Part shown: positions 7,253-45,876 of the stretch, piece after piece
Layout of the letters: the number at the start of each line of letters is the position of its first letter
How positions within the stretch are numbered: position 1 is the first letter of the stretch
Notes under the pieces: model-generated
What the model was told of the DNA's origin: nothing
The model's input: only the letters and a program-made list of their open reading frames with translations
Databases searched by the model: none
Source: Aquificota bacterium
GTDB lineage: Bacteria; Thermosulfidibacterota; Thermosulfidibacteria; Thermosulfidibacterales; B14-G1
Length of the DNA: 48,154 nucleotides
Direction: 5' to 3'
NCBI GenBank assembly: GCA_015486105.1
Contig: WFSI01000093.1
Coordinates: 1-48,154 of the forward strand
Position numbers and translations under genes: made by a program

Positions 7253-7288
7253 AACAGAAAAATAAATTATGTTTGGAAGGAGAAAGCC

Positions 7289-20925: not shown

Positions 20926-21003
20926 CTTGTATCTCCCTTTACTAAGGATAATGCAAAAGTGAGGTATTATCAAAGCTTACAGATTGGAGAATCCGCCTTT
21001 TTC

Positions 21004-21094: not shown

Positions 21095-22543
21095 CTAAAA
21101 GGCAAGCCAAGCAAAAGAGCTATAGGAAGCAGAAAGGGCACTCCCTGGAAAGATACCCAATTGAAATATGCCTACTACAACGATAAGCAAGGCAATAACG
21201 GCGGCAGGATGAATGGAAAAGGCATACTCCTCCTTCGGTTCTACCATATACATCACATAAACCACCTTTAGGTAATAGTAGGCAGCCACGGCGCTGTTAA
21301 AAACAGCTATAATGACCAAGGGTATAAGCCCCGATCTTATTCCAGAGGCAAATACATAGAACTTACCCATAAAACCTGCCGTCCCCGGGATACCTGCCAG
21401 AGAGAAAAAGCATATGGCCATAGCCGCTGCCAACACAGGTCTTTTAGCTGCCAAGCCAGCATAATCCGAGATGTCCACGAATCTCTCTCCCTGACGACCT
21501 ACCAATGACACGACACCAAAGGCCCCCAGATTCATAAGGGAATAGGCCAACATATAAAATATCACCGCCGCTCCTCCTTGCCTGGAGGCAGCAGCCACAC
21601 CCACCAAAGCATATCCGGCATGGGCTATGCTGGAGTAAGCCAGAAGACGCTTAATGTTTTCCTGGCGAAGGGCTGCAAAGTTTCCAATAACCATGGAAGC
21701 CACCGATACCACGGTAACTATGACTACCCAATGGGCCTTCAAGGGATACAGCGCCATTCCCAAAAAGCGAAGCATCACCGCAAAAACAGCTACCTTGGCT
21801 GCTGTAGCCATGAAACCAGCTACAGGAGCAGGGGCACCGCCATAGACGTCAGGGGCCCACCCATGAAAAGGCGCTGCCGAGACCTTGAAGAAAAAGCCCA
21901 CTAACACCAATACAACCCCCACAAGCAGCGTAGCGGAAGGAGAAGCAGTGGAGACAAACCGAGCTACATCCTGAAAATAAAGGCTCCCCACAACACTATA
22001 TATGAAAGCCAACCCCATAAGGAAAATGGCTGATGCAAACCCGCCCAAGAATAGGTACTTCAAAGCCGCCTCATTGCACAGGTCCCTTTGACGCACAAAA
22101 CCTGCCAAGGCATAGAGGGCAATGGAAAGAACCTCCAATCCCACGAAAAAGAGGATAAGGTGCTGGGCCGAAGTCATAAAGAAAAGCCCTATAACTGAAA
22201 AAAGAATAAGGGCGTAATACTCTCCCAGGTTCCGACCTTCTTGGCGAAGGTACCCAGGGGAAAAAAGGAAGGTGAGACCAGCAATAAGGATGTATATAAG
22301 AAAAGTAATGATAGATAGTTTATCAGTTATTAGGGTATGAGCAAAGGTAAGACTATGCACATTCCAAAGGCCCAAGGAAAACCAGGCGGCCAGGGCTAGC
22401 CCCACCAATCCCAGATAGCCATAGTGACTCTCCCTTCCCTTGGCACCAAAGACATCTACAAACAGCACCACCACCCCCGTAACTAAAAGCACAATAACGG
22501 GCAACAAAGGGCGAATATTGACAGACAACGCTTGAGTAGTCAT
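21095..22543 (-). CDS. nuoN: NADH-quinone oxidoreductase subunit N
   Basis: [38 protein letters not shown] and FSLAGIP. Confidence 0.95.
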
Positions 22544-24123
22544 GGCCTCACCTCAACCTTGCGTTCTTCCACTACGGACGCCGCCAGGGAAATCTTCCCC
22601 TTTATTTCAGGATTATGCTCCATGGCCACAGCTGTATCCCCCTTAATCTGGGCAATGAAATGGGCAACGGAAGGCTCCATCCTCTGTAAAACTGGCTTTG
22701 GATAGATGCCTATCCAAAACATGGGAATGCTGAACATGAGGCAGATCACAACCTCCCTAAGCCCAAGGTCCTTCAAAGAAAGATTTTCCTTAACGGTGAT
22801 TTCATGGAAAAAGACCCTCTTAACCAGCCAAAGCATGTAACAAGCAGAAAGCACCGAAGTTGTAGCCCCCAATGCCCCATAAATAGGATACGCCTTAAAG
22901 GTTCCCACCAAGGCCAAAAACTCCCCAACAAAACCGTTTAACCCAGGGAGACCTATGGAAGAGAAGGTAGCAATCAGGAAAAAGGCAGAATATATGGGCA
23001 TAACCTTGGCAATGCCTCCATAATCCTTTATAAGTCGAGTGTGTCTTCTATCGTAGGCCATACCCACCAGCAAAAAGAGGGCACCCGTAGAAATACCGTG
23101 GTTTACCATCTGGAGGAGCCCCCCAGAAACTCCTTGCAAGGTAAGGGCAAACATACCCAGCATAACCAAACCCAAGTGGGAAACAGAGGTATAAGCCACC
23201 AGTTTCTTCATATCATCTTGGACCAAAGCCACCAAGGCCCCATAGATAATGCTGATAATAGCCAGTATCAAAAAAAGATTACTGAACCGAAGGGCCGCAT
23301 GGGGAAAGAAGGGCATACAAAACCGCATGAAACCGTAAGTACCCATCTTTAGGAGCACACCAGCAAGAATCACCGATCCGGCAGTAGGGGCTTCCACGTG
23401 GGCATCGGGCAACCACGTATGAAAAGGGAACATGGGCACCTTAATAGCAAAGGCCAAGGCAAAGGCCAAAAAGAGCCATGGGGCAAGAGACGGGGAAACA
23501 GGCGTTGATAGAAGCTTGGCTAAACTGAAGGTGAGCTCCCCCGCCACCCGATAGTGATGATAATAAAGGAAAATGATAGAAACCAGCATAAGCACAGAAC
23601 CCGCCATAGTATAAAGGAAGAACTTGATGGCGGCATATACCCTCCTGGGCCCTCCCCAGACGCCAATAAGGAGATACATGGGCACCAGCATGGCCTCCCA
23701 AAAGAGATAGAAAAGCAGCATGTCCAAAGCACAAAAGACACCAATCATGGTGGTCTCTAAAAGAAGAAAGGATATCATGTACTCCTTGATATGCTTCTGG
23801 ATAGACCAGGAGGCCAATATAGAGAGCATAGTTAGAAAGGTAGTGAGAAGCACTAAAAAGAGGGTTATACCGTCTATCCCCAGGTGATAGTTGGCCCCCA
23901 GGATCTTGATCCACGGAATCTTCTCAACAAACTGAAAGTGATAAGTTCCCAAGTGAAATTTAAAATAGAGCGGGATGGAAAGAATAAACTCCGCCACAGT
24001 GGTTACAAAAGCCACCCAGCGAAGAAGGTCTTTGCTCTCCTTATCAACGAAGAGCAAAACAAGCACACCCACCAATGGGAAGAAGGTAATAATAGTCAAA
24101 ACAGGATACGTAAAACCGCCCAT
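22540..24123 (-). CDS. nuoM: NADH-quinone oxidoreductase subunit M
   Basis: [16 protein letters not shown] and [29 protein letters not shown]. Confidence 0.96.
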
Positions 24124-24138
24124 CTCTCCTCTCCTCGC

Positions 24139-26019
24139 CTAAAATAGTCTGCCAATCCAGTAGATGACCACTGCTCCCATCAGGATCATCCAGGCATAGT
24201 CGGGGATATACCCCGTCTGAAACTGCCGGATGCCGCTCCCAGCCAGACGACAGAGCCTCCCCACCCCATTTACTGTGCCATCTATAATGACCACATCCAC
24301 AAACTTCCACAGAAGGTAACGAGACCCATCCACCAAGGGATTGATAATAAAAGCGAAGTAAATCTCGTCCACATAGTACTTGTTATAGAGCAAGGTATAG
24401 ACAGGCCTAAAGGTCCTGGCCATCCCCACAGGGTCAGGCATTTTCCTCATGTACATGAAATAGGCCAATATGATACCAGCTACCCCCATGATGACCGAAA
24501 TAACCAAAAGCACATGCTCCACCCCTGCCCCAGCTTCCTCCCCATGGGCTGCTACTTCACCCAAAACCTTATTAAGGAACCCACCGATACCCCCATGGGG
24601 ACCCAAAGCCAAAAGACCTACCACTGCTGAACCAACAGCCAGTACTATCAGAGGCACCGTCATCACTGGAGGCGATTCTTGAGCTATTTCATAGAGATGA
24701 CTATCCCTAGGCTTACCAAAGAAGGTGAGAAAGATAAGCCTAAACATATAAAAAGCCGTGAGGAAAGCTGTAAAGGTTCCCACAAACCAAATCACCTTGT
24801 GTCCATGCATGAAGGCCCCCGCCAAGATCTCGTCCTTAGACCAGAAGCCTGATAAAGGAGGTATACCTGAAATGGCCAATGCCCCAACTATAAAGGTCCA
24901 TCCTGTGATGGGCATCTTCTTGATAAGCCCTCCCATCTTCTGCATGTTCAGCTCACCGTGAAGCATATGCATCACCGAGCCAGCGCAGAGAAACATAAGG
25001 CCTTTGAAGAAGGCATGGGTAAAGAGATGGAAGATACCAGCAGCGTAAACCCCCACTCCAACACCAATAAACATGTAACCCAGCTGACTTATGGTAGAAT
25101 AAGCCAAGACACGCTTGAGGTCATTGTTCACCAAGGCAATAGTGGCAGCCAATAAGGCGGTAAAAGCACCGATGGAAGCCACTATCTCAGCAGAGAAGGG
25201 GGCCAAATTGTAAAGGACATGGACCCTGGCCACCATGTACACACCCGCAGTGACCATGGTGGCAGCATGGATAAGGGCACTGACCGGGGTAGGGCCTTCC
25301 ATGGCATCAGGGAGCCACACATAGAGAGGGAACTGGGCAGATTTACCAACGGCGCCAACAAAGAGAAAGAGGGTTATGAGGGTAATGATAAGGGGAGAAG
25401 CAAGAGAAGCCCTGGAAAAAACATCAGCAAACATCAAAGAACCATAGAACTTGTATATGGCAAAGAGACCGATCATGAACCCGAGATCTCCAAGTCTGGT
25501 AGTGACAAAGGCCTTCATACCTGCATTGGCCGCGCTGGTCTTCTCATACCAGTACCCGATAAGCAAGTAGGAGCAAAGGCCTACTCCCTCCCAGCCAACA
25601 AACATGAGTAAAAAGTTGTTAGCAGAAACCAGCAGGAGCATAAAAAATGTGAACAGGTTTAACCAAGAAAAGTATTTAGCGTAACCCCTGGGGGTCTCGT
25701 GCTCCATGTACCCAATTGAATAGAGATGAATCCAGGCAGCCACAAAGGAAACCGTGGCCAACATAACCGCCGATAGCTCATCAACAAGGAATCCAACGGG
25801 TATCCTGAAACTCCCCACCGGAATCCACGTATAAAGGTTCATATCACCATGAGCACCGCCTATCACCTTAGAAAGCACCACTAAGGAACATATGCATGAG
25901 GCAAAAAGGGCTGGCACCGCAATGAGATGGGCTTTCTTCTTGGTCACCCACAGAAAGATGCCGTTTATGGCTGCACCCAAAAGAGGAATAAAAACGGCCC
26001 CCACCACCCAAATCATCAT
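24139..26019 (-). CDS. nuoL: NADH-quinone oxidoreductase subunit L
   Basis: GWEGVGLCSYLLIG and GKSAQFPLYVWLPDAMEGPTPVSALIHAATMV. Confidence 0.96.
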   Translation of the reverse strand: MMIWVVGAVFIPLLGAAINGIFLWVTKKKAHLIAVPALFASCICSLVVLSKVIGGAHGDMNLYTWIPVGSFRIPVGFLVDELSAVMLATVSFVAAWIHLYSIGYMEHETPRGYAKYFSWLNLFTFFMLLLVSANNFLLMFVGWEGVGLCSYLLIGYWYEKTSAANAGMKAFVTTRLGDLGFMIGLFAIYKFYGSLMFADVFSRASLASPLIITLITLFLFVGAVGKSAQFPLYVWLPDAMEGPTPVSALIHAATMVTAGVYMVARVHVLYNLAPFSAEIVASIGAFTALLAATIALVNNDLKRVLAYSTISQLGYMFIGVGVGVYAAGIFHLFTHAFFKGLMFLCAGSVMHMLHGELNMQKMGGLIKKMPITGWTFIVGALAISGIPPLSGFWSKDEILAGAFMHGHKVIWFVGTFTAFLTAFYMFRLIFLTFFGKPRDSHLYEIAQESPPVMTVPLIVLAVGSAVVGLLALGPHGGIGGFLNKVLGEVAAHGEEAGAGVEHVLLVISVIMGVAGIILAYFMYMRKMPDPVGMARTFRPVYTLLYNKYYVDEIYFAFIINPLVDGSRYLLWKFVDVVIIDGTVNGVGRLCRLAGSGIRQFQTGYIPDYAWMILMGAVVIYWIGRLF

Positions 26020-26032
26020 ATCTCCTCTCCTC

Positions 26033-26338
26033 TCACCACTTCATCAAGTGTGCCCGATCTACATCAACACCACCCCTGTTCCTGTAAAAGGTGGTGATGA
26101 CCGCCATCCCAATGGCCGCCTCAGCAGCGGCCACAGCCATGACAAACAAGACAATGACCTGACCCTCTGCACTCCCCATGTGCCTGGACAACGCCATAAA
26201 CAAAATATTCACCCCGTTGAGCATAAGCTCTAAACAGAGAAACATGACGATGGTGTTTCTCCTAACCATCAATCCCAACGCTCCCAAGAGAAAAACCAAC
26301 ACACTCAACACCGTATACTGAAAAAGCCCTACTCCCAC
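26033..26338 (-). CDS. nuoK: NADH-quinone oxidoreductase subunit K
   Basis: RRNTI..F.CLELMLN and VAAAEAAIG. GTG start at 26338 (101 aa). Confidence 0.94.
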   Translation of the reverse strand: MGVGLFQYTVLSVLVFLLGALGLMVRRNTIVMFLCLELMLNGVNILFMALSRHMGSAEGQVIVLFVMAVAAAEAAIGMAVITTFYRNRGGVDVDRAHLMKW

Positions 26339-26348
26339 CTTATACCCC

Positions 26349-26852
26349 CTACAGCTTCTTCTTAGCCAATGCCACAGCTCCCAAAGCAGCAACAAAAATG
26401 AGAACGGAAACCAGCTCAAAGGCCAGCATGTAACGGGTGAAAATGAGATGGGAAATCTCACCTATGGACACACCGTGGGATCCCCCTTTCACCCATCCCT
26501 TCCACTCCACACCAAGGACAACCACTTGAATAACAAAGAGGACAACAGCGCCTAAGCCGAACAAGAACCTCCAAGGCGCTATCCTATCCTCATACTCCCC
26601 TTTGTGCAGGTTCATGAGCATGAGAACAAAAAGGAAAAAAACCATGATGGCTCCAGCGTAGACGATGACCTGGAGCATAGCAATGAAGGGAGCCCCCATA
26701 AGAGCCAAGTACATAACAGCAGTAATACACAAATTAGCCAACAGAGAAAGGGCCGAATAGACGGGATTTTTGAGAAAAACTACCCCCAAAGCCGAGAGGA
26801 GAATCAACACAGCCAAAAAGAAAAAAAGCACATCCCAAAGATTAATAATCAT
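26349..26852 (-). CDS. nuoJ: NADH-quinone oxidoreductase subunit J
   Basis: NPVYSAL, QVIVYAGAIMVFFLFVLMLMN and FELVS. ATG at 26852. Confidence 0.94.
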   Translation of the reverse strand: MIINLWDVLFFFLAVLILLSALGVVFLKNPVYSALSLLANLCITAVMYLALMGAPFIAMLQVIVYAGAIMVFFLFVLMLMNLHKGEYEDRIAPWRFLFGLGAVVLFVIQVVVLGVEWKGWVKGGSHGVSIGEISHLIFTRYMLAFELVSVLIFVAALGAVALAKKKL

Positions 26853-26854
26853 AG

Positions 26855-27286
26855 CTACTCCCCACCCGTTTTCTCTAAGAGCCAATTCTTTTCCTTTAAC
26901 AGATGCACTCTACCAGGACCCGGTACCGTTAACTCATAATCCTGGGTCATCTCTATTGCCCCTCGGGGACAAGCATCCACACACAAGCCGCAAAATATAC
27001 ATCTACCATAATCAATGGCGTAATACTCAGCATACTTACCCACATCAGAGCGCTTAAACTCGGGATCCTCCTTCCCATAGAGCTTTATTGCATACGCAGG
27101 ACAAATCTCCTCACAGAGACCACAGGCACAGCATCTCTCTCTTCCATCCTCATCTACCTTGAGAATGTGCCTCCCCCTGTATCTATCCGAGACCTGCCTT
27201 TTCTCGTATGGATATTTTATAGTGATATGAGGCTTAAAGAGATGGCCAAAAGTGACGCTCAATCCCTTAATCAACGGCCCAATCAT
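26855..27286 (-). CDS. nuoI: NADH-quinone oxidoreductase subunit I
   Basis: YPYEK, RYRGRH and two CxxCxxCxxxCP motifs. Confidence 0.95.
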   Translation of the reverse strand: MIGPLIKGLSVTFGHLFKPHITIKYPYEKRQVSDRYRGRHILKVDEDGRERCCACGLCEEICPAYAIKLYGKEDPEFKRSDVGKYAEYYAIDYGRCIFCGLCVDACPRGAIEMTQDYELTVPGPGRVHLLKEKNWLLEKTGGE

Positions 27287-27289
27287 GAC

Positions 27290-28297
27290 TTAAATTCCCC
27301 CTTGGAGAAATAGCATCACACCACCTGTTGCCACTATGTTCAACAGAGTTAAAGGCAAAAGATACTTCCAGGAAAATCCCATGAGTTGATCGTATCTGAA
27401 CCGAGGATAGGTCCACCTAACCCATAGTAAGAAAAAGAATACGGCCACTATCTTAATCAGGAACCATATGGGTCCAGGAACCCAGGCCAAAAAGGAAACG
27501 GGGCTGTACCACCCGCCCAAAAAGAGACACACAGCCACAGCAGAGGTAACTGCCATATTGGCATATTCCCCTAAGAAGAACATGGCAAACTTCATAGAGC
27601 TATACTCAGTATGATACCCACCTACCAATTCCGATTCGGCCTCCGGTAAATCAAAGGGCAAACGGTTAAGTTCGGCAGTGGCAGCCACCATATATAAAAT
27701 AAATGCCAAGGGCTGATACGCCACCAGCCACATGTTTTTCTGATAATGGACGATATCCACTAAACTAAAAGAACCCACAATCATGAGCACGCCCATGATA
27801 GAAAGCCCCAGTATAAGCTCATAGCTGATGAACTGAGCAGCAGATCTCAAACCACCAAGCAAAGGGTACTTGGAATTGGCAGACCACCCACCAAACACGA
27901 TGGCATAGACAGAAAAAGAAGACACGGCCAACAGGTAAAGAACGGCCACATTTATATCAGTAATCACCAGATTGATCTTATGCCCAAAGAGGGTAATGCT
28001 CTCCCCAAAAGGAATAACCCCTATGGCCAAAATGGCAGGAATAATAGCTATTGTAGGGGCCAAAAAGTAGAGGAACTTATCGGATTTGCTCGCTACAATA
28101 TCCTCTTTAAAAAAGAGCTTAAGGCCGTCGGCAAAGGGCTGCAAAAGCGCATGGGGACCGCAGTACATAGGCCCCAGCCTATCTTGAATATGGCCGGAAA
28201 CCTTCCTCTCAGCTAATGTCCCATACGCAACTATCAACATGAGCACCGCAAACAGCACTAACAGCTTAACCAATGCCACTATGATAGCCAGTAACAT
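27290..28297 (-). CDS. nuoH: NADH-quinone oxidoreductase subunit H
   Basis: ERKV...QDRLGP, QPFADGLK and RLPFDLPEAESELVGGYHTEYS. Confidence 0.97.
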   Translation of the reverse strand: MLLAIIVALVKLLVLFAVLMLIVAYGTLAERKVSGHIQDRLGPMYCGPHALLQPFADGLKLFFKEDIVASKSDKFLYFLAPTIAIIPAILAIGVIPFGESITLFGHKINLVITDINVAVLYLLAVSSFSVYAIVFGGWSANSKYPLLGGLRSAAQFISYELILGLSIMGVLMIVGSFSLVDIVHYQKNMWLVAYQPLAFILYMVAATAELNRLPFDLPEAESELVGGYHTEYSSMKFAMFFLGEYANMAVTSAVAVCLFLGGWYSPVSFLAWVPGPIWFLIKIVAVFFFLLWVRWTYPRFRYDQLMGFSWKYLLPLTLLNIVATGGVMLFLQGGI

Positions 28298-28300
28298 AGC

Positions 28301-30595: not shown

Positions 30596-30612
30596 CTCAG
30601 GGACCTCCTAAG

Positions 30613-31815: not shown

Positions 31816-32280
31816 CTACTCCTCAAAATCATAACCTTCAGTAGGATAGTCTTTCCTCAAGGGATGACCAGGGAAATCCTCTGACAAATAAAGCCTGGTA
31901 AGATTCGGGTGACCTTCAAATTCTATACCAAACATGTCGTAGACCTCCCGTTCCATCCAATCTGCTCCAGCCCAAAGCCCACAGGAGGAAGAAACAGTCT
32001 CACCTTCCTCCAAACCTACCTTCACCCGGAGCTGGACTTTAGAATCCATGTTTCTCAAGTGATAGACCACATAAAAACGAGGGCTCTCGCCCTCACCCAT
32101 ATCCAAACCACAGAGATCCACCAAACAATTGAAACCGAAGTCCCTTCTCAGAAGTTCCAGGGCCTCAAAAAGGGAAGATTTATCCACCACCCAGGTATGC
32201 TCTCCTCTAAATTCCGCCTCGTTTATCACCGCCCCTTGCAAACACTCCTTTGCCTCATCCAGCCAATCCATAGCAATCAC
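31816..32280 (-). CDS. nuoC: NADH-quinone oxidoreductase subunit C
   Basis: ADWMEREVYDMFGIEFEGHP...GHPLRKDYP. Confidence 0.96.
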   Translation of the reverse strand: MIAMDWLDEAKECLQGAVINEAEFRGEHTWVVDKSSLFEALELLRRDFGFNCLVDLCGLDMGEGESPRFYVVYHLRNMDSKVQLRVKVGLEEGETVSSSCGLWAGADWMEREVYDMFGIEFEGHPNLTRLYLSEDFPGHPLRKDYPTEGYDFEE

Positions 32281-32286
32281 CTGTAA

Positions 32287-32856
32287 CTATATCTTATTTT
32301 GAAAAGATTCTTTCTCTATCTTCTTCTGAAGCATCAGAATAGCCTGAAGCAAAGCTTCAGGCCTAGGGGGACAGCCAGGAACATAGAAATCCACTGGCAC
32401 TACCTTGTCCACACCTTGCACCACAGCGTAACTCTTATATATACCACCGCCAACAGCACAGGCCCCCATAGCTATAACCCACTTGGGATCGGGCATCTGA
32501 TCATAAACCCTCTTAAGGACAGGAGCCATCTTCTTAGTAAGGGTGCCAGCGACTATCATGAGATCAGCCTGCCTAGGAGATGGTCTAAACACCTCCGCTC
32601 CAAAACGGGCCATATCATAGTGAGAAGCAGCCGTAGCCATCATCTCAATAGCACAACAGGCTAAACCAAAGGTCACCGGCCAGATAGACCATTTTCTGGC
32701 CCAGTTCACTGCCTTATTTAGGGAAGTAATGAGCACTCCCCCCTTTTCCAACATTTCAAGCTCGGCCTCTGTTACGCTCTCCTCTACCAACCTCTCCTCA
32801 GGCTTCACCAACCTGGGGATCTCTACCTTTTCAACAGGAGTTCTCTTCACTCCCAT
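32287..32856 (-). CDS. nuoB: NADH-quinone oxidoreductase subunit B
   Basis: [16 protein letters not shown] and [12 protein letters not shown] at 32856. Confidence 0.97.
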
Positions 32857-33203
32857 TCCAAAGCCCCCCTCCCCCACACATAGACAAAGATAGCCAAGAA
32901 TATAGCGATAAAAACCACCATCTCCAAAAAACCAAAGAGCCCCAGTCTTTTGAAACTCACAGCCCAGGGATAGGTAAAAACAACCTCTATATCAAAAACA
33001 AGAAAGAGAAGAGCAACGATGTAGTAATGAATGAAAAAGGGAGCCCGGGCATCTCCGATGGGATCCAAACCACACTCATAAGGAGAAAGTTTGATAGAAT
33101 CGGGTCGCTTTGGTCCCAGTAAAGCAGAGGCCAAAACAGCAAATACCCCAAAACCAACTCCCAACAAGAGCACAAGGATCAATGGCCAATACGCTTCTCT
33201 CAT
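32847..33203 (-). CDS. nuoA: NADH-quinone oxidoreductase subunit A
   Basis: PYECG and [15 protein letters not shown]. Confidence 0.96.
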
Positions 33204-33228
33204 TGGATATCCCCCAAAAATCGAAGGC

Positions 33229-33282
33229 TACATATCACCCAGTCCCCAGCCATGTCAATAGAGAAAATTGTTTTTTTCACAA
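33229..33282 (-). promoter_or_regulatory. nuoA promoter with conserved upstream element (shared with 40411-40440)
   Basis: Minus strand reads TTGTGAAAAAAACAATTTTCTCTA-TTGACA, an 18-nt spacer, then TATGTA. Confidence 0.65.
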
Positions 33283-33335
33283 TATCTCCTCCACCTAACC
33301 TGCAAGTGCGTGCAGATAGAGCAAAACAATCTTCC

Positions 33336-36300
33336 TTAATTAACAGCCTCTACCTTTTCCAGTTCCTCTTCCTCTTCTATCTCCTCTGGAGGTCTATCAC
33401 AGTGGAGGCACCTCTTAGCCTCTTCAACGGCCTGATCCAACGAAAGGCCCTCATTCACCTCCACGAAACTTTTTCTATCCTCCAAAGGCAACATGCAAGG
33501 CTTCGCCCGGGGGAGAGTCACCAGATAAGCCTCCTCATCATAGGTGGTTCCAACCACTTCCCTTTCGGGGAAGGGAATTTTACCTTCATAACCAAAGTAT
33601 TTGTCGATCTCCATAGCAGCTAACCTTCCATGGGCCACGGCTTCCACCACCGTGGCAGGGTTAACTGCGTCTCCCCCTGAAAACACGCCAGGGATGCTGG
33701 TCTTCATAGTCCTATCATCCACTTGCACAAATCCCCATTTATTGAAAAGCTCTTCTTGGGCATCCAGTCCTTTAGTTAAACCCTGACCTATACAAGGAAT
33801 CAAGGTATCGGCCTCTATAGCAAAATTGGAGCCTTCCACAGCAACAGGTCGCCTCCTGCCACCCCTATCGAAACCCCTGGTCTCCATGCGAACGCACTCT
33901 ACCCCCGTCACCTCGCTCTCACCTAGCACTTTAACAGGCGTAATGAGGAAATTGATCTTGACACCCTCTTCCAAAGCCTCTTCAATTTCCTCAGGAAAGG
34001 CAGGCATATCGTTCTTAGTGCGACGATAAATAATGCTCACCTCCTCAGCCCCCAACCTAAGGGCGGTCCTGGCAGCGTCAATGGCAGTATTACCACCTCC
34101 CACTACCACGACTTTATTCCCAATCTCCACCTCCTTACCTAGATTCACATCCCTCAAGAAGTCTATGCCGTGGTACACGCCAGGCAGATCCTCGCCTGGC
34201 ACATTCAGTTTATAGGAGGTATGAGCACCAACCCCCACGAACACAGCCTTATAACCCTCGTCAAAGAGGTTCTGAAGGCTATCCACCTTGTGGTTCAGCT
34301 TAAGATCAACCCCCGCCTCCACAATTCTTTCTATCTCCCTATCCAGCACCTGGGGGGGCAACCGGTAATCAGGGATACCCACCCTCATCATACCTCCCGC
34401 CACTGGCAAGGCTTCAAAAACAGTAGGCAAGTAGCCTAAACGGGTAAGATAAAAGGCGCAGGCCAAACCTGCCGGTCCAGCCCCTATTATAGCCACTTTC
34501 TCCTTTTTGGGATCCTCAGGAGGCCCCCAGGGACCCGCATCTTTCAATGCCCAGTCAGCAAAGATCCTCTTGATCTCCCTTATGGCCACCGCCTCATCAA
34601 ACTTCTCCCTGTTACACTTCTTCTCGCAAAAGGCAGGACACACCCGGGAGCAGGCCGCAGGAAAGGGATTGTTCTCCATGTGAACGTAGTAAGCCTCGGG
34701 TATCTTATTTTCCGCTACCAAGGCTACATACCGGGCAGGATCCACACCAGCAGGACAGGCATTCTGACAGGGGGCATAAAAGAGGGCAGCGCATACACCA
34801 GCAGGACATTTTTTGTCCACGATATGAGCAATATACTCATCTCTGAAATACCTCATAGTGGAAAGGACAGGATTGGGAGCAGTTCCCCCCAAGGCGCAAA
34901 GGGATGTGTTAATTATGAGGTGCCCCAAGGTATCCAGGGTGTCTAAGTCCTCTATCTTGCCTTCACCGTTGGTAATCCTCTCCAAGATATTCAGCATCTG
35001 CTTTAGACCCACACGACAAGGTACACACTGACCGCAGGACTCCTCCACACAAAATTCCAGGAAAAACTTGGCTATATTAACCATGCAGGTATCTTCATCA
35101 AGAACAATCATACCACCAGAGCCCATAATTGCGCCCAGTTCCTTCAAAGATTCATAATCTATGGGAGTATCCAAGTAAGGAGCAGGGATGCAACCACCCG
35201 AAGGACCTCCCGACTGTATAGCCTTAAACTTCTTGCCTTTGGGAATACCCCCACCAATATCGAACACCATCTCCCCCACGGTGGTGCCCATGGGGACCTC
35301 CACCAATCCGATATTGTTCACCTTACCCGTAAGGGAAAAGACCTTGGTGCCCTTACTCTTTTCCGTACCCATGCTGGCATACCAGTCACCGCCGTTCCGG
35401 ATAATAGGGGGAATATTGGCATAAGTCTCCACATTATTGATATTGGTGGGCTTGCCCCAAACGCCCTTATTGGCAGGAAATGGAGGCTTGGGTCTGGGCT
35501 CTCCCCTGCCTCCCTCCACAGACTTGAGCAAGGCCGTCTCTTCTCCACATACAAAGGCACCTGCCCCAATCCTTATCTCCACATCGAAGTCGAACCCCGT
35601 ATCCAGAATGTTTTCACCCAAGAGTCCATACTCCCGGGCCTGGCTCATGGCTATTTCCAGCCTCTCAATGGCTATGGGATACTCTGCCCTTATGTAAATG
35701 TAGCCCTTCTTCACGTTTCCAATAGCGTAAGCAGCTATGGCCATGCCTTCCAATACCCTATGGGGGTCGCCCTCCATGACGCTCCTGTCCATGAAGGCCC
35801 CGGGGTCGCCCTCATCGGCGTTGCAAATTATATACTTCTCATTACCAGGGGCCTTCCTGGTAAACCCCCACTTGAGTCCTGTGGGAAAGCCGGCGCCACC
35901 TCTGCCCCTCAGGCCGCTCTTTGTCACCTCCTCAATCACCTGCTCAGGGGTCATCTCCATTAAAACCTTAGCCAAAGCCTCGTACCCGTTCTCGGCAATG
36001 TACTCATCTATGGACTCAGGATCTATCTTACCCGCATTTTCAAGAACTATCTTGTGCTGCTTGGCGAAGAAGCTGTACTCCATCATGCTCCTGACCACCT
36101 GCCCAGTGACCTCGTGGAGGAGCATCCTCTCCACAGGCCTTCCTTTGAGCAAATGCTCCTCCACAAGAAACGGCACATCCTCAGGCTGAACCCTGGCATA
36201 GAGAAGCATATCAGGATAGATCACCACCACGGGGCCCAAATCACAGGTCCCTCCACATCCCCTTTTTACTACCTTCACCTCAGCCTCTAAGCCCCTCCTC

Positions 36301-36395
36301 TTTATCTCTTCTTCAAAGGCTGCCCTGACCTTAGGAGACCCACTGGCCACGCAAGCCGTACCCTCACAAATTAAGACATGGGTTCTATAAATCAT
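33336..36395 (-). CDS. nuoF: NuoF/HydB(HndC)-like flavoprotein fused to a GltD/NfnB-like FAD/NADPH oxidoreductase domain
   Basis: Trx-like [2Fe-2S] (CEGTAC...CGGTC), GRGGAGFPTG, NADEGDPGAFMDR, GGPSGG, ESCGQCVPC..SLC and H...KCPAGVC. These are followed by PCQNACP, CSRVCPAFCEKKC, GAGPAG, GGGNTAIDAAR, YRRT and EAKRCLHC. Confidence 0.9.
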   Translation of the reverse strand: MIYRTHVLICEGTACVASGSPKVRAAFEEEIKRRGLEAEVKVVKRGCGGTCDLGPVVVIYPDMLLYARVQPEDVPFLVEEHLLKGRPVERMLLHEVTGQVVRSMMEYSFFAKQHKIVLENAGKIDPESIDEYIAENGYEALAKVLMEMTPEQVIEEVTKSGLRGRGGAGFPTGLKWGFTRKAPGNEKYIICNADEGDPGAFMDRSVMEGDPHRVLEGMAIAAYAIGNVKKGYIYIRAEYPIAIERLEIAMSQAREYGLLGENILDTGFDFDVEIRIGAGAFVCGEETALLKSVEGGRGEPRPKPPFPANKGVWGKPTNINNVETYANIPPIIRNGGDWYASMGTEKSKGTKVFSLTGKVNNIGLVEVPMGTTVGEMVFDIGGGIPKGKKFKAIQSGGPSGGCIPAPYLDTPIDYESLKELGAIMGSGGMIVLDEDTCMVNIAKFFLEFCVEESCGQCVPCRVGLKQMLNILERITNGEGKIEDLDTLDTLGHLIINTSLCALGGTAPNPVLSTMRYFRDEYIAHIVDKKCPAGVCAALFYAPCQNACPAGVDPARYVALVAENKIPEAYYVHMENNPFPAACSRVCPAFCEKKCNREKFDEAVAIREIKRIFADWALKDAGPWGPPEDPKKEKVAIIGAGPAGLACAFYLTRLGYLPTVFEALPVAGGMMRVGIPDYRLPPQVLDREIERIVEAGVDLKLNHKVDSLQNLFDEGYKAVFVGVGAHTSYKLNVPGEDLPGVYHGIDFLRDVNLGKEVEIGNKVVVVGGGNTAIDAARTALRLGAEEVSIIYRRTKNDMPAFPEEIEEALEEGVKINFLITPVKVLGESEVTGVECVRMETRGFDRGGRRRPVAVEGSNFAIEADTLIPCIGQGLTKGLDAQEELFNKWGFVQVDDRTMKTSIPGVFSGGDAVNPATVVEAVAHGRLAAMEIDKYFGYEGKIPFPEREVVGTTYDEEAYLVTLPRAKPCMLPLEDRKSFVEVNEGLSLDQAVEEAKRCLHCDRPPEEIEEEEELEKVEAVN

Positions 36396-36421
36396 TGCAT
36401 CCTCCCTTAGTGATCATGGCT

Positions 36422-36802
36422 CTATTCTAAAGGCGTAGAGACCACATATTCCTTCACGGTTTCACCCCTTATTATGTGGCTTTCTATGATCTCTTTGGCC
36501 TTTTCAGCAGTGAGATTGCAGTACATCACCTTTCTCCCTTCTCTATCCTCCACCAAAGCCACGGGCTGAATAGGATCGCTTCCCATGAACCCCGTCTGGG
36601 TCACCACTACATTGTGGAGATCATGCTCTTCTATTGCATCCAAAAAGGCCTTTAACACCTCTCTGGCGCCAGCGGCTATCCCTGAGGTTCCCATAGGAAC
36701 GACTATTCTATAGTCATACTCCCCCTCCCTTATGTCCATCTTCTTCTTAGCCTGCTCCCTTATTTTCCTCAATTGATCCAAGGTTCTCACCTTCTCTGCC
36801 AT
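36422..36802 (-). CDS. HndB-like thioredoxin-fold ([2Fe-2S] ferredoxin-like) subunit lacking the usual cysteines
   Basis: RTLDQLRKIRE N-terminus, RIVVPMGTSGIAAGAREV, VTQTGFMGSDPIQP and IIESHI..G..V.EY. Confidence 0.8.
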   Translation of the reverse strand: MAEKVRTLDQLRKIREQAKKKMDIREGEYDYRIVVPMGTSGIAAGAREVLKAFLDAIEEHDLHNVVVTQTGFMGSDPIQPVALVEDREGRKVMYCNLTAEKAKEIIESHIIRGETVKEYVVSTPLE

Positions 36803-36812
36803 AACTCACCTC

Positions 36813-37361
36813 CTACTCTGCTTTCATTACATCTCTAAGATTTTCGTTTATATAACCCCTTAAAAACCCGAGCACATTAGCATCAGACATGGGTACATCA
36901 CCCAGCAAATCCTTCACCTTTTTGCTATCAAAAAGAAACTCACCTTTCCCCTCATACTTCACTACAAATCTGACCTCAGGGTTAGAAACAATAAGGGCAA
37001 AGAGGGTACCGGCTAAATCCCCCATAGGGGGACGATCTATGTGACTTAATCCAAACGCCGCTTCCAGGACAGTTCCTTTACCAGGGCTACTATCCAAACT
37101 GAAATAACCATCACAATGCTCGGCCACCCACTTAAACATCGGTATCCCCAAGCCCACCTTTCCACCTTGCTTAGTTGTATAAAATGGATCCTGAACCCAT
37201 TTTAACTCTTTGGCAGTCATACCTCTGCCATCGTCCTTAACCCGCACCTTAAGGAGATCCCTGTCCATATCTTCATTTATGACGAGCTCTATCTTCCTCG
37301 CACCAGCGGCTAAAGAGTTTTGAAGTATGTCCATTATATGCAAGGCAAGTTCCTCCATCAT
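36813..37361 (-). CDS. Stand-alone HATPase_c (histidine-kinase-like ATP-binding) protein
   Basis: ELALHIMDILQNS, DDGRGM, DPFYTTK, GLGIP, GKGT and HIDRPPMGD. Confidence 0.88.
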   Translation of the reverse strand: MMEELALHIMDILQNSLAAGARKIELVINEDMDRDLLKVRVKDDGRGMTAKELKWVQDPFYTTKQGGKVGLGIPMFKWVAEHCDGYFSLDSSPGKGTVLEAAFGLSHIDRPPMGDLAGTLFALIVSNPEVRFVVKYEGKGEFLFDSKKVKDLLGDVPMSDANVLGFLRGYINENLRDVMKAE

Positions 37362-38137
37362 GATTCATCTTGCCCCAATTCGAGAGAATTTGAAGAGCGA
37401 TGAAGCACCTGAACCGCCTCCTTGCCCCTCTTCAAGGCCTGCATAAAACCCCACCACGAAGGCTCCTCCATGAAAAAGAGGGTAACAACAGCCCCTATAT
37501 CTTCAGGGTAATGGGCATCTGAAGCGCTCACGATAGTATACTTCCGCAACTCAGGCCACTTAGCTACAGCTTGCTCCGGTGTTAGCGCCCGGGAAACCTC
37601 TACCGCCTCAAGATCCAAATAATCGGGAATAAACCCCAACTGGTTGATTACACCGTAGGAAGCCCTGTCCACATGGGCAGGAATGGGGAAACCCTGATAG
37701 TCCTTCACCATTCTGACGCATGCGTCAAAAGAGAGGGACAAGGAGTTAAGAAGGAGTTTCTCCTCAAATCCCACCACATTTTCATCCTCATCCACTATCA
37801 CCTGATCCCCGAAATAGTCGGGGTTGTTCTTCACATCTGGAAGATACCCATAGATTACATCTCTAAAAGAGAAGACCGCATCAAGAGTTCCGAAATAAGC
37901 CAAAAGATGAACCTCCTCTTCCGTCTGGAGCTCCATTCCTGGAATGACCTGCACTCCTATCTTATCCCCTATCCTCTTGGCATACAACACGTTGTCACAA
38001 GTATTATGATCAGTAACAGCAATCATATGAATACCCTTCTCCTTGGCTTCTCTCACGATACGCCCTGGAGACATCTCCAGGCTCCCACAAGGAGATAAAG
38101 TAGAGTGTATGTGAAGGTCCGCCATATACCACTTCAA
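37358..38137 (-). CDS. PHP-domain phosphoesterase
   Basis: DLHIHS.LSPC, TDHN, EEVHLL, PAHVDR and SDAH; TTG start with a TTGA overlap. Confidence 0.9.
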   Translation of the reverse strand: MKWYMADLHIHSTLSPCGSLEMSPGRIVREAKEKGIHMIAVTDHNTCDNVLYAKRIGDKIGVQVIPGMELQTEEEVHLLAYFGTLDAVFSFRDVIYGYLPDVKNNPDYFGDQVIVDEDENVVGFEEKLLLNSLSLSFDACVRMVKDYQGFPIPAHVDRASYGVINQLGFIPDYLDLEAVEVSRALTPEQAVAKWPELRKYTIVSASDAHYPEDIGAVVTLFFMEEPSWWGFMQALKRGKEAVQVLHRSSNSLELGQDES

Positions 38138-38484
38138 GAATCATCCTCCCCCCTCAAAAGCTCATACAACACCCCGGACAATTCAAATAAAGGTAATTTG
38201 GAAACAAGAATAGGAATCCCCTCTTTCTCCGCTTTATCCAATACTTCAGGTGAAGGAACTATACCTTTAGCAAGCACGATTCCCCCCAGATCACTTACTT
38301 TAGCTACAGCCACTATATTTAAATGCCTCTGAATAGTAAGCCACAAATCCCCTGCATTAGCACCAGCCATTACATCGGAAAGAAGGTCCGATGCATAGGC
38401 CCACCTCACCTCCCTGTCTTGGACATCCACACCCCTCGTCACTAATTCTAAATCCAATTTGTCTATAATATTTTTAAGCAGCAT
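38134..38484 (-). CDS. DRTGG-domain protein
   Basis: YASDLLSDVMA, LWLTIQRHLNIVAVA and AEKEGIPIL. Confidence 0.85.
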   Translation of the reverse strand: MLLKNIIDKLDLELVTRGVDVQDREVRWAYASDLLSDVMAGANAGDLWLTIQRHLNIVAVAKVSDLGGIVLAKGIVPSPEVLDKAEKEGIPILVSKLPLFELSGVLYELLRGEDDS

Positions 38485-38923
38485 CTTTCCTCCTAAAAAC
38501 CACAGAATATATCTTGGTTCCTTTGCCCATCTCCGACTCTATATGAAAAACATCAGACTTTTCCTTAATATTAGGCAAGCCCAAACCTGCACCGAAACCC
38601 AATTCTCTTATCCAGAGAGGAGCCGTAGAGTAACCAGGAGTCATGGCCTTTTCTACATCCTCAATACCCGGGCCATCATCTTCCACAACCACCTCCACTC
38701 TGTTAGGCTTAACCTCAACCTTCAAGTGACCACCCCTATCCGCGTAAGATGCCAGATTCATCTCAGCCTCAAAACAGATTATAGATACCTTTTTGATCAC
38801 ATCATCCTCGACCCCTATTTCTTGCAAGCGCCTCTTTATCTCTGTAGAAACTACGCCCACATTGTCCAAATCCCCACCTTTCAAAATCGCATAGTGAAGA
38901 ACAACCTCCCAGCCTTCACTCAA
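38474..38923 (-). CDS. Anti-sigma-factor-type Ser/Thr kinase (RsbT/RsbW-like HATPase)
   Basis: FEAEMNL, EDDGPGI, AMTPGYSTA, GFGAGLGLPN and GKGT. TTG at 38923 overlaps the upstream stop (TTGA). Confidence 0.88.
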   Translation of the reverse strand: MSEGWEVVLHYAILKGGDLDNVGVVSTEIKRRLQEIGVEDDVIKKVSIICFEAEMNLASYADRGGHLKVEVKPNRVEVVVEDDGPGIEDVEKAMTPGYSTAPLWIRELGFGAGLGLPNIKEKSDVFHIESEMGKGTKIYSVVFRRKDAA

Positions 38924-39279
38924 AGATACTTCCCCTCTGAACACCGAATCCCTTTTAAGTACAACCTGCCGCAGGCCTCAAAGGTGGGGATAGGGGTACT
39001 TAATAACACTATACCGTTCTCCGTTGCCCAACTAATCACTTTCTCTTCAGTGGGCTTCTTACCCCTCACGTAGAGAATAGCCGGAATACCCATCACCTCC
39101 GCCACTCTCACTACCTGTGGTGCCACATTACTAGTGACAGTAAGGGCAGGTCCGCCTCTCAGAGCCAGAACATCAGACAGAAGATCCGCCGCACAAGCGG
39201 CTTCTATTTCCCTTCTTCCCTCTTCTTCCAGGTTCAAGAACTGGGCTTCCAATAGCTCAGCTACTTCCTTCAGTTTCAC
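38920..39279 (-). CDS. DRTGG-domain protein
   Basis: ACAADLLSDVLA, QVVRVAE, VRGKKP and FEACGRLY. Confidence 0.85.
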   Translation of the reverse strand: MKLKEVAELLEAQFLNLEEEGRREIEAACAADLLSDVLALRGGPALTVTSNVAPQVVRVAEVMGIPAILYVRGKKPTEEKVISWATENGIVLLSTPIPTFEACGRLYLKGIRCSEGKYL

Positions 39280-39766
39280 TCAATCCCTCCCTCTCATAGT
39301 ACCCCTTCACTATATTCCAGGCCCGCTGGGGACTGAGCCTCCCGTAAACATCTTCACCAATCATAATAACAGGGGCAAGACCACAAGCCCCAACGCATCT
39401 CACGGTATTCACAGTAAACTTCTGATCTTTAGTGGTGCCCCCCACCTTAACCCTCAGCCTGTGACAGAGGGTTTCCAGCACATCCTTCCCCCCCTTCACG
39501 TGGCAGGCAGTTCCCAAACAGACACGGATCTCATACTCCCCTATGGGCTCTGTCCTGAAAAAGTTGTAAAAGGTTACCACGCCATAAACATGGCTGGGCG
39601 GAACCCCTAGTTCCTGGGCAACATACCCAATAATCTCCGGCGGAAGATAGCCAAAGACCCCTTGAGAAAAGTGAAGCACTTTAATAAGGGACCCAGGATC
39701 CCCCCTGAAATTCGCCACGAAGTCCTTAACCTTATTATGCTCCGGCGTGTCCGGCAGTTTCACCAT
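39257..39766 (-). CDS. nuoE: NuoE/HydC(HndA)-like [2Fe-2S] subunit
   Basis: QGVFGYLP, VYGVVTFY, CLGTAC and CVGACGLAP. Confidence 0.92.
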   Translation of the reverse strand: MVKLPDTPEHNKVKDFVANFRGDPGSLIKVLHFSQGVFGYLPPEIIGYVAQELGVPPSHVYGVVTFYNFFRTEPIGEYEIRVCLGTACHVKGGKDVLETLCHRLRVKVGGTTKDQKFTVNTVRCVGACGLAPVIMIGEDVYGRLSPQRAWNIVKGYYEREGLSETEGSS

Positions 39767-39778
39767 TGCCCCCCTCCT

Positions 39779-40351
39779 TTAACGAGCACCAAATTCAAAC
39801 CAGTGATAAACATCCCTCATGAGCTGTTCATAACTACCCTTCACACCCTCATAGAGTCGGGCATTCTCTATAGCAATAGTAGCCTGCTCAGCCAAAGCCT
39901 GAACAAAATCTACCTCATCCGCGCCAAAAGCCCGGGGGTTAGAAGTATAAAGTCTAAGAACACCAATCACTTTACCCCTCAACACCAAAGGAACACTAAG
40001 TATAGAAGCTACGCCTTCCTTTACAGCCGCCTCTTTATACTGGACCCTAATATCATGAGCTGCATCATAAACAGCTACAGGTTTACCCTCCATGGCATCG
40101 GCGACGCTTCTGTCAGCCTCAACGGGACCCTTCTTTAAATAATCCTCAGAGATGCCATAAGAAGCCACCAACTCCAATCGCTTAGACTCCTCATCCAAAA
40201 GCCGCAGAGTAGCACCCTTGACCCCCATCACTTCCGAAACCTTCTTCACCGCCCGGTCAAAAACTTCCTTGAGACTAAGAGTAGAGTTAATCAATCTACT
40301 CACTTCTTTGAAAGTCTCAAAATACTTCTTATACCTCCCCTCTTCTGCCAT
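39779..40351 (-). CDS. Stand-alone GAF-domain protein
   Basis: INSTLSL.EV, LELVASYG, SILSVPL, VIGVLRLY and LAEQATIAIENARLY. ATG at 40351. Confidence 0.88.
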   Translation of the reverse strand: MAEEGRYKKYFETFKEVSRLINSTLSLKEVFDRAVKKVSEVMGVKGATLRLLDEESKRLELVASYGISEDYLKKGPVEADRSVADAMEGKPVAVYDAAHDIRVQYKEAAVKEGVASILSVPLVLRGKVIGVLRLYTSNPRAFGADEVDFVQALAEQATIAIENARLYEGVKGSYEQLMRDVYHWFEFGAR

Positions 40352-40386
40352 AAAAGCACCCCCCCCCCAAGGTACTATTCTGGGAG

Positions 40387-40440
40387 AGATTACTACCCCG
40401 GTGAAATCATTGTCAATAGAGAAAATGATTTCCTTCACAA
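40387..40440 (-). promoter_or_regulatory. Promoter of the GAF-nuoE...nuoF-fusion operon with conserved upstream element
   Basis: Minus strand reads TTGTGAAGGAAATCATTTTCTCTA-TTGACA, an 18-nt spacer, then TAATCT. The inverted repeat GAAATCATT-N12-AATGATTTC (40403-40432) straddles the -35 box. Confidence 0.65.
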
Positions 40441-40591
40441 AAGAGACTTAAGAACCCTCTTGCCTCTTCCTAATCCACTATCTTCAAGAGCTTCCATAGC
40501 AAAGCCATCCCCTTTTAAGACCCCCGCCTCAACAAGTCTTTACTGATTCTTATCCTTTATGCTAAAGGGTGGCCGCTTGAAGGAGAATTTC

Positions 40592-45838: not shown

Positions 45839-45844
45839 ATCTAA

Positions 45845-45870: not shown

Positions 45871-45876
45871 AGAAAC

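Follow-up and report, generated by a model that had tools for sequence, protein, structure and literature searches.

A HydBC-type module with a NuoF-GltD fusion as candidate input head of a complex I without nuoEF in a family related to Thermosulfidibacter

Descriptions of respiratory complex I usually distinguish two forms, one with a fixed NADH head (NuoEFG) and an 11-subunit form without all three of these subunits. The 48,154-nucleotide contig WFSI01000093.1 of the Aquificota bacterium assembly GCA_015486105.1 (the window hereafter, contig C93 of the genome) carries a complex I operon in which NuoG is present and nuoE and nuoF are absent. The genome is a metagenome-assembled genome (MAG) of 1.89 Mb in 155 contigs with an estimated completeness of 94%. 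Upstream of nuoA, in a co-directional run of minus-strand genes from position 40438 to 21095, lie a NuoE/HydC-like gene and a large gene in which a NuoF/HydB-like protein is fused to a GltD-like domain. From which head does such a complex I receive its electrons? We lean, with caution, towards the NuoE-like protein and the fusion as the input head (N-module) of this complex I, with an NADH site at flavin mononucleotide (FMN) and an NADPH site at flavin adenine dinucleotide (FAD). The genes concerned are as follows (aa, amino acids).

39257-39766, minus strand: NuoE/HydC (BfuC)-like [2Fe-2S] subunit, 169 aa (Pfam 2Fe-2S_thioredx, E 5e-49)
33336-36395, minus strand: NuoF/HydB-GltD fusion, 1019 aa (Pfam and PDB comparison)
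33204-33335, minus strand: spacer of 132 bp from the stop of the fusion to the start of nuoA (read from the sequence)
32847-33203, minus strand: nuoA (Pfam Oxidored_q4)
32287-32877, minus strand: nuoB (Pfam Oxidored_q6)
31816-32280, minus strand: nuoC, 154 aa, separate from nuoD (Pfam Complex1_30kDa)
30613-31815, minus strand: nuoD, 400 aa (Pfam Complex1_49kDa)
28301-30595, minus strand: nuoG, 764 aa (Pfam Fer2_4, NADH-G_4Fe-4S_3, Fer4_Nqo3, Molybdop_Fe4S4 and Molybdopterin)
27290-28297, minus strand: nuoH (Pfam NADHdh)
26855-27286, minus strand: nuoI (Pfam Fer4 families)
26349-26885, minus strand: nuoJ (Pfam Oxidored_q3)
26033-26338, minus strand: nuoK, with a GTG start at 26338 (Pfam Oxidored_q2)
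24139-26019, minus strand: nuoL (Pfam Proton_antipo_M and Proton_antipo_N)
22540-24123, minus strand: nuoM (Pfam Proton_antipo_M)
21095-22543, minus strand: nuoN (Pfam Proton_antipo_M)

An earlier sequence-only reading of the window had given the operon order as nuoA-B-C-D-G-H-I-J-K-L-M-N without nuoE or nuoF, with the NuoE/HydC-like gene and the NuoF/HydB-like fusion upstream on the same strand, and both statements are borne out. All eleven core subunits (A, B, C, D and H to N) score above the Pfam cut-off. Only 17 nt separate the stop of nuoD from the start of nuoG, with AGGAGG inside, so that there is no room for nuoE and nuoF. A canonical in-operon NuoE with a NuoF of about 420-450 aa is absent, and the sole adjacent NuoF homologue is the 1019-aa fusion. 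NuoG retains all ligands of clusters N1b, N5 and N4 (C34/45/48/62; H94/C98/101/107; C146/149/152/196) and of N7 (C222/225/229/255), and these are invariant among 22 sequences; its NCBIfam equivalog score of 432.9 stays under the cut-off of 470.

The fusion contains, from its N-terminus, Pfam domains 2Fe-2S_thioredx (residues 4-79), Complex1_51K (157-329), NADH_4Fe-4S (441-524), Fer4_20 (535-618) and Pyr_redox_2 (633-923), together with an SLBB match under the cut-off. Against the PDB, residues 2-587 match the HydB-type subunits 7t2r_B (NiFe-HydB, 829 bits), 7q4v_B (FeFe-HydB, 769 bits) and 9n5u_B (NfnB, 714 bits), whereas complex I NuoF lies far below (Thermus Nqo1, 2fug_1, 425 bits). The likeness to HydB extends through a CPxxxC motif after residue 529, the 'B2' site that is absent in canonical NuoF, and decays in the residue-level alignment past about residue 540, where Fer4_20/GltD starts. 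Residues 541-1000 match the NADPH-binding GltD-like parts of NfnA (9n5u_A, 9bov_A), StnC (8oh5_C) and Thermotoga NfnB (4ylf_B). For the C-terminal ferredoxin-type domain of HydB, which holds two [4Fe-4S] clusters (B3/B4), no Fer4-type Pfam match was found in the fusion. An alignment of 14 diverse homologues shows C10/15/47/51 of the N-terminal thioredoxin-like site (B5) to be invariant, and the invariant cysteines altogether fit the N-terminal [2Fe-2S] cluster, an N3-type [4Fe-4S] cluster, the B2 motif and further cysteine groups in the GltD part. Sites B2 and B5 are thereby present by sequence, their metal content being predicted. The NuoE-like protein has cysteines at 83, 88, 124 and 128. 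Its top PDB matches are HydC (8a6t_C, 7q4v_C) and NfnC, above complex I NuoE, and no NCBIfam NuoE model reaches its cut-off. Since both proteins best match HydB/HydC-type chains, the module can be assigned from its residues to the HydBC/Bfu-type core, with a GltD/NfnB-type domain, predicted to carry [4Fe-4S] clusters, FAD and an NAD(P)H Rossmann fold, in place of the ferredoxin-type B3/B4 domain. The features by which Schut et al. 2022 define the Bfu BC core are found, namely FMN (Nuo51), SLBB and NADH_4Fe-4S in the fusion and the thioredoxin-like [2Fe-2S] domain in the NuoE-like protein.

The suggestion that the module might be electron-bifurcating finds no support in the predicted domains, because the B3/B4 domain of HydB is absent and GltD is in its place. 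In published work, non-bifurcating homologues are described as lacking sites B2-B5, and deletion of B3/B4 is reported to have abolished bifurcation in a HydABC; PMC11829005 calls the domain essential for bifurcation.

The swap can be followed in relatives. The family consists of two genera of hydrothermal-vent bacteria related to Thermosulfidibacter and is represented by six genomes that are 73-96% complete. Among 41 genomes, 39 match the fusion query somewhere, and a single frame covering both halves is present only in G000-G004 (83-100% identity), G019 (54%) and G035 (51%). In G001 and G002, the genes nuoA-B-C-D-G... follow the fusion directly. A contig break splits the fusion in G003 and G004, with its last ~100 codons on the contig that continues into nuoA; in G005 it is cut by a contig end and the adjacency to nuoA is not assessable. 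Synteny, on which the earlier proposal depended, is therefore kept in four of the five family relatives, and the full regulatory cassette that accompanies the module is visible in G002, G003, G004 and G005. The order-mates, in contrast, are canonical: seven of them (G007, G008, G009, G011, G012, G013 and G014), from two sister families, have nuoABCD-E-F-G-H... with a NuoF of ~426 aa. Canonical-size NuoF was found in none of the six family genomes, although the same query finds it in most order-mates. As the order-mates have nuoEF in the operon, the swap is specific to the family.

The nuo operons of the family and of the order-mates appear orthologous on sequence grounds, since the identities of shared subunits range from 42 to 80%. 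Identity is 57-80% for NuoA, B, D, H, I, K, L and M (NuoB 78-80%, NuoD 66-70%, NuoH 69-71%, NuoL 65-71%); NuoJ (48-55%) and NuoN (42-51%) are the least conserved. Compared with the canonical 14-gene complex I of the order-mates (L096-L102), the window has apparently orthologous nuoA-D, nuoH-N and NuoG, and the family is without the nuoE and 426-aa nuoF that stand between D and G in the order-mates. The simplest history is that the ancestor of the family, which also has the fusion module upstream of nuoA, lost nuoEF by deletion. A further difference concerns nuoC and nuoD, which are separate genes (154 and 400 aa) in the family of the window and one frame in order-mates; the fused NuoCD frame of ~505-558 aa is seen in the sister-family operons L096-L100 (G007, G009, G011, G013, G014).

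We also considered NuoG as a foreign replacement and rejected this, as its nearest relatives outside the family are the NuoG proteins of the order itself (41-44% identity, a set that includes a protein named Thermosulfidibacter takaii), followed by matches of 31-35%. The low overall identity is mostly due to the fast-evolving C-terminal domain, which is 30-40% identical between the groups and 37-40% between canonical-group genera. The N-terminal domain is 55-62% identical between family and order-mates and 81% between canonical-group genera of similar NuoD divergence.

Would the fusion fit on this N-terminal domain? A complex of NuoG residues 1-250, taken as the partner, with fusion residues 95-545 and the NuoE-like protein was modelled with an ipSAE of 0.81, the best of three controls reaching 0.00; 58 of 80 solved complexes pass the mark used for this score, as do 2 of 110 mismatched pairs. 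At least 95% of contacts are shared between runs, and the partner pLDDT is 79 or higher. In the model, residues 453-466 and 496-499 of the fusion, in the region of the N3 cysteines, meet NuoG residues 42-47, 78-93 and 162-180, which is the interface known from complex I and HydABC. Family and canonical NuoG N-termini show group-fixed differences at 13 of 43 modelled interface positions as compared to 25 of 172 other positions (odds ratio 2.5, Fisher's p 0.024, without control for relatedness); these differences include W85/G and E169/W.

Other partners for the module were sought in the same genome. In support of the earlier proposal, canonical nuoEF, HydA and FdhA were found neither in it nor in any of the five family relatives. 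The [FeFe]-hydrogenase H-cluster domain (Fe_hyd_lg_C) gave no match in these six genomes, while the control genomes, Thermotoga and Bacteroides, do match, and the molybdopterin family is represented in each of the six by NuoG alone. The own genome encodes two proteins with Fer2_4, the N-terminal domain of NuoG and HydA, namely NuoG itself and a 236-aa protein encoded on contig C84, and the NuoF-like genes number two, the fusion and a 612-aa HydB-type gene, also on C84. That cluster (3648-9700, L006) consists of genes for POR gamma, alpha and beta, a NuoE-like protein (162 aa), the HydB-type protein and the BfuA-like 236-aa protein. The HydB-type protein has a C-terminal 2x[4Fe-4S] domain and the BfuA-like protein is without a catalytic domain. 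The arrangement POR-BfuC-BfuB-short BfuA matches the Por-Bfu type as set out by Schut et al. 2022 (PMC9304861). Orthologues of the cluster (61-76% identical; L106-L109), with BfuB and BfuA at 61-68%, occur in the four order-mates examined (G008, G009, G015 and G017), three of which (G008, G009 and G017) also have canonical-size NuoF; Por-Bfu is therefore a separate unit.

The genome encodes a second nuo cluster, with nuoA-B-C at the end of contig C2 (7860-9244) and nuoD-H-I-J-K-L on C112 (119-5510). Here nuoD is directly followed by nuoH, as in the 11-subunit type without E, F and G, and the subunits are 32-59% identical to those of the window. In this one genome, NuoG is therefore kept only where a NuoEF-like module adjoins. 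GltD-like matches elsewhere are confined to two places: an Hdr-like cluster on C20 (670-11693, L103), which encodes an HdrA-like/GltD fusion of 1129 aa, MvhD, a flavoprotein of 994 aa as well as CCG and Fe-S subunits, and, on C5 (2042-4317, L104), a canonical NfnAB pair of 283 and 476 aa. A fumarate reductase/succinate dehydrogenase-type flavoprotein is encoded on C124, which makes a quinol-consuming partner of complex I conceivable. In genus g2 of the family, a trio between dprA and topA encodes a thioredoxin-like (153 aa), a NuoE-like (186 aa) and a NuoF-like protein (544 aa); at L105 (G003, contig C36, 1637-4317) the NuoF-like protein is without the C-terminal cluster domain and no catalytic gene stands beside the trio. 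In the window, dprA (40711-41790) adjoins topA (41634-43835) with no trio between.

If the module is the head of this complex I, its history and function may be pictured as follows. The ancestral nuoE and nuoF would have been deleted from between nuoD and nuoG, and a HydBC/Bfu-type module would now stand 5' of nuoA with its own cassette. The N3-type [4Fe-4S] face of the fusion would dock on the NuoG N-terminal domain that holds N1b, N4 and N5, much as NuoF does in canonical complex I and HydB does on HydA. NADH would react at the FMN of the fusion, electrons would leave via the N3-type cluster to N1b, N4 and N5 of NuoG, and the route would run on through NuoI and NuoB to quinone, coupled to proton pumping. 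The GltD domain would provide a second, FAD-based site, which binds NADPH in relatives and would tie NADP(H) to the same chain. With nucleotide sites at FMN and at FAD, the enzyme would then connect NAD(H) as well as NADP(H) with the quinone pool, whichever way the reaction runs. The gene content, the swap in the family, the lack of another partner and the domains and ligands are seen in the sequences; the physical docking, the nucleotide specificity, the direction and any energetic coupling between the two nucleotide sites we infer from these comparisons.

The fusion also occurs far outside the family. A word-based protein search scored at least 8000 proteins, with ~60% identity in Spirochaetes, Chrysiogenales and Bacillota, and the nearest non-family fusions among the matches listed are 62-65% identical. 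We surveyed the neighbourhoods of the best 80 of at least 600 matching stretches in contigs of a one-genome-per-species set, which may leave out records near the genome of the window itself. A full-length fusion is present in 44 of the 80 loci, and in 38 of these a NuoE-like gene lies just upstream. A NuoG-like gene is adjacent in 15 of the 44, and in 11 of the 22 that have 4 kb or more of flanking sequence on each side. Of the 15 NuoG-like neighbours, ten were put through Pfam and all ten have NuoG/FdhA-type architecture, seven being full FdhA-type proteins (880-1021 aa) and three shorter; one of the tested proteins (972 aa) has a NuoE-like domain at its C-terminal end. The sequence-only reading had put NuoG of the window in the position of HydA/HndD. 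The model, which passes its controls, and the NuoG-type partners of the fusion in other loci speak for this placement; binding as such we infer, and the assessable loci without a NuoG-like gene speak against it.

Several observations weigh against the module being the head of complex I. In the remaining 11 of the 22 assessable loci, the NuoE and fusion pair has no NuoG-like neighbour and may therefore work alone. Genes nuoA-N were found beside the fusion in none of the 80 loci of other lineages; the linkage to nuo is thus known from one family of two genera only, and shared gene order is weak evidence. A canonical NfnAB is already encoded, so that an additional NADPH link is not obviously needed. 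The 132-bp spacer between the fusion and nuoA holds a TTGACA-like hexamer, and the module and nuoA-N may therefore be transcribed separately. A scan of 32700-41000 gave 8 promoter-like and 9 terminator-like sites (shuffled means 8.7 and 8.7) and placed none of either kind on the coding strand of the spacer, which is weak evidence as the counts are no higher than in shuffled sequence. For 30600-37400, no RNA data set was listed, and three DNA data sets contain only small shares (0.07-0.10). The NuoE/NuoF (544 aa) pair of genus g2 could serve instead. Like complexes have already been solved, so that the pass of the docking model may show likeness only. Finally, family-specific substitutions on the NuoF side fall on 4 of 29 interface positions versus 26 of 422 others, which is not significant (p 0.12).

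These points lead to the main rival explanation, in which the NuoE-like protein and the fusion are a stand-alone soluble oxidoreductase of the Nfn/Stn type for NADH and NADPH, possibly also ferredoxin, that merely neighbours nuo, complex I being fed by another donor, e.g. ferredoxin or flavodoxin. Such donors have been proposed for other forms of complex I without NuoEF. Between them, the two proteins have every part that a transhydrogenase needs, namely an FMN/NADH site, an FAD/NADPH site and linking clusters. Among solved structures, the GltD part is nearest to the NADPH-binding subunits of NfnABC and Stn, and the absence of a NuoG-like gene in half of the assessable loci of other phyla as well as the possible promoter ahead of nuoA agree with an independent unit. 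Several findings speak against it. Loss of nuoEF goes together with the presence of the module beside nuoA in the same family, and NuoG with its full cluster chain is kept only in the operon of the window, whereas the second nuo cluster lacks E, F and G together. The genome already has NfnAB, the modelled docking on NuoG passes controls, and the modelled NuoG interface has taken extra substitutions. We regard a stand-alone enzyme as possible, if on the whole unlikely.

A more far-reaching version of the head can be considered as well. As GltD occupies the position of the ferredoxin-reducing domain, three-way coupling of NADH, NADPH and quinone is possible. The head would then be a three-way splitter that bifurcates or confurcates between NAD(H), NADP(H) instead of ferredoxin, and the NuoG chain to quinone. 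The FMN-[4Fe-4S]-[2Fe-2S] site of the HydBC core would split the electrons and complex I would double as an energy-coupled NADH/NADPH transhydrogenase, for example by 2 NADH + NADP+ + MQ -> 2 NAD+ + NADPH + MQH2 (MQ, menaquinone). The reverse, driven by proton-motive force, is conceivable, and the kinase/phosphatase cassette, inherited from hydrogenase operons in this reading, would act as the switch. We hold this version to be doubtful.

That the true NADH head is encoded elsewhere, by the HydB/HydC-type pair on C84 or by nuoEF in the unassembled ~6%, would be allowed by a 155-contig, 94% complete MAG and by the complete HydBC-type core with ferredoxin-type C-terminal domain on C84, but is very improbable given that the C84 genes belong to a POR-BfuC-BfuB-short BfuA cluster that encodes a NuoG-like subunit of its own, that their orthologues occur in four order-mates, three with canonical-size NuoF, and that canonical-size NuoF is seen in none of the six family genomes, yet in most order-mates.

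The module, which we continue to favour as the head of complex I, includes further genes between and beside its two core subunits, all of them in the same run.

39779-40438, minus strand: GAF-domain protein, 219 aa (Pfam GAF_2, E 2.5e-21)
38920-39279, minus strand: DRTGG-like paralogue, 119 aa, regulatory cassette (38% identity to the DRTGG protein, E 3e-13)
38474-38944, minus strand: SpoIIAB-like HATPase, 156 aa, regulatory cassette (Pfam HATPase_c_2)
38134-38484, minus strand: DRTGG-domain protein, 116 aa, regulatory cassette (Pfam DRTGG, E 2.4e-4, under the cut-off)
37358-38137, minus strand: PHP-domain phosphoesterase, 259 aa, regulatory cassette (Pfam PHP and PHP_C)
36813-37361, minus strand: second HATPase-domain protein, 182 aa, regulatory cassette (Pfam HATPase_c, E 1.3e-12)
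36422-36802, minus strand: thioredoxin-like, HndB/HydD-like protein, 126 aa (PDB matches)

The GAF protein, first gene of the run, is a possible sensor. The 119-aa protein has neither a Pfam nor an NCBIfam match and is also present in related loci; the 156-aa HATPase matches the NCBIfam anti-sigma F factor model (E 4e-13) under the cut-off. The combination with this cassette had been thought unusual, which was not borne out. The same four-gene cassette is found in 23 of the 80 surveyed loci, in many phyla, seven with the fusion and 16 with an ordinary HydB of ~600 aa, and is therefore a usual companion of HydABC-type operons. In three tested Bacillota loci, a HydS-like protein of 432-448 aa stands between the first HATPase and DRTGG, and HydA follows HydB in four of four loci tested. 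In the window, the DRTGG gene comes directly after the first HATPase; the cassette departs from those of HydABC operons only by the absent HydS.

As to the HndB-like gene, its presence and the likeness in fold were confirmed and the cluster ligands were not. The 126-aa protein has no Pfam match; its PDB matches are the N-terminal domain of StnB, HydB and NfnB and the Aquifex [2Fe-2S] ferredoxin. The protein has C95 as its sole cysteine and is therefore unable to bind a [2Fe-2S] cluster, unlike most of its homologues. Among 59 homologous matches in related loci, 50 have at least three cysteines. One cysteine at most is seen in the other nine matches of this thioredoxin-fold protein (e.g. loci L009, L062 and L074); the genome of the window is therefore not alone in having lost the [2Fe-2S] site.

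A locus from Atribacteria (L048, 552-21202) has NuoB/D/H/I-like genes (28-50% identity) upstream of the same regulatory cassette, followed by NuoE, the fusion, a second NuoE/HydB pair and a NuoG-like gene. These NuoB/D/H/I-like genes are probably a membrane-bound hydrogenase-type module, and the locus may be another membrane-linked Bfu-type system.

How does the complex of the window relate to described systems? The sequence-only reading allowed that Nuo-linked HydBC-type modules might already be catalogued, and indeed Schut et al. 2022 (PMC9304861) propose 'Nuo-Bfu', with 51 sequences and with Geobacter, Deferribacteres, Planctomycetes and Nitrospirae as hosts. Nuo-Bfu complexes with a HydBC-type head being already proposed, the complex of the window is a new variant. 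Both combine a proton-pumping Nuo membrane/quinone module, a NuoG-type subunit and HydB/HydC-type proteins, and both are known from gene clusters and not from purified enzyme. BfuABC of Nuo-Bfu lies in the middle of a 14-gene cluster, whereas in the window the E/F homologues lie 5' of nuoA behind a cassette and only G is inside. BfuB of Nuo-Bfu has B3/B4, and confurcation of ferredoxin and NADH onto menaquinone is proposed for it; the window has GltD with FAD/NADPH instead. The BfuB definition given there includes a ferredoxin-type 4Fe-4S domain and therefore probably excluded the NuoF-GltD fusion.

The electron-bifurcating transhydrogenases NfnABC/StnABC (Nfn-Bfu; cryo-EM entries 9n5u, 9bov, 8oh5; PMC11829005) share the parts, i.e. 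a HydC-like subunit, a HydB-like FMN subunit and a GltD/NfnB-like FAD-NADPH domain with [4Fe-4S]. There GltD forms an insertion in the A subunit, from which the A-cluster chain leads to the core, and B keeps the ferredoxin-binding B3/B4 domain. In the window, GltD sits on the C-terminus of B replacing B3/B4, the module has no A subunit, and the sole nearby A-type protein is NuoG of complex I. The HydABC/HndABCD operons of Bacillota (L053, L054, L075) show the same series of DRTGG-like, HATPase, DRTGG, PHP, NuoE-like, HATPase, thioredoxin-like and HydB genes, with proteins 33-66% identical to those of the window. They differ in that the HydS-like sensory hydrogenase (three of three) and the HydA after HydB (four of four) have no counterpart in the window, whose HydB bears GltD and whose thioredoxin-like protein has lost cysteines. 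In Campylobacter and Helicobacter, complex I keeps NuoG, unrelated small in-operon proteins replace NuoE and NuoF, and flavodoxin is the donor. The candidate replacement in the window, by comparison, is a hydrogenase-type NuoEF homologue outside the operon. A NuoF-GltD fusion next to a nuo operon was not found in the open-access literature, although the supplementary clade tables of PMC9304861 could contain the type; no paper on the DRTGG/PHP cassette was found there either. The accessible parts of PMC8097209, PMC5736913, PMC6349859, PMC7311640 and PMC10327494 hold nothing bearing on the fusion.

The surroundings of the run may be added. Downstream of nuoN, after 121 bp and in the same orientation, comes a sensor kinase of 706 aa with GAF, HisKA and HATPase domains, followed by a PAS-domain protein of 386 aa (both within 17705-20973, minus strand), so the whole run is flanked by GAF-domain genes, the 39779-40438 protein and this kinase. 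On the other side, at 43931-47199, a plus-strand 635-aa OYE-type NADH:flavin oxidoreductase fused to a pyridine-nucleotide-disulphide oxidoreductase domain adjoins a convergent 440-aa pyridine-nucleotide-disulphide oxidoreductase with a dimerisation domain.

The kinase/phosphatase cassette known from HydS-regulated hydrogenases thus travels with non-hydrogenase enzymes too. The NuoF-GltD fusion is widespread, with thousands of database matches, and appears to lie outside the published definition of the Bfu catalogue. In this family the exchange of the complex I head appears recent and traceable, as sister lineages keep nuoEF and the family has, ahead of the operon, a flavoprotein of hydrogenase/formate-dehydrogenase type with an additional NADPH/FAD domain. 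If the fusion docks on NuoG, the family would offer a natural example of modular head-swapping in complex I, a complex I that uses or makes NADPH directly, and a test system for the unproven idea of a bifurcating 'Nuo-Bfu', with the ferredoxin branch exchanged for a pyridine-nucleotide branch.

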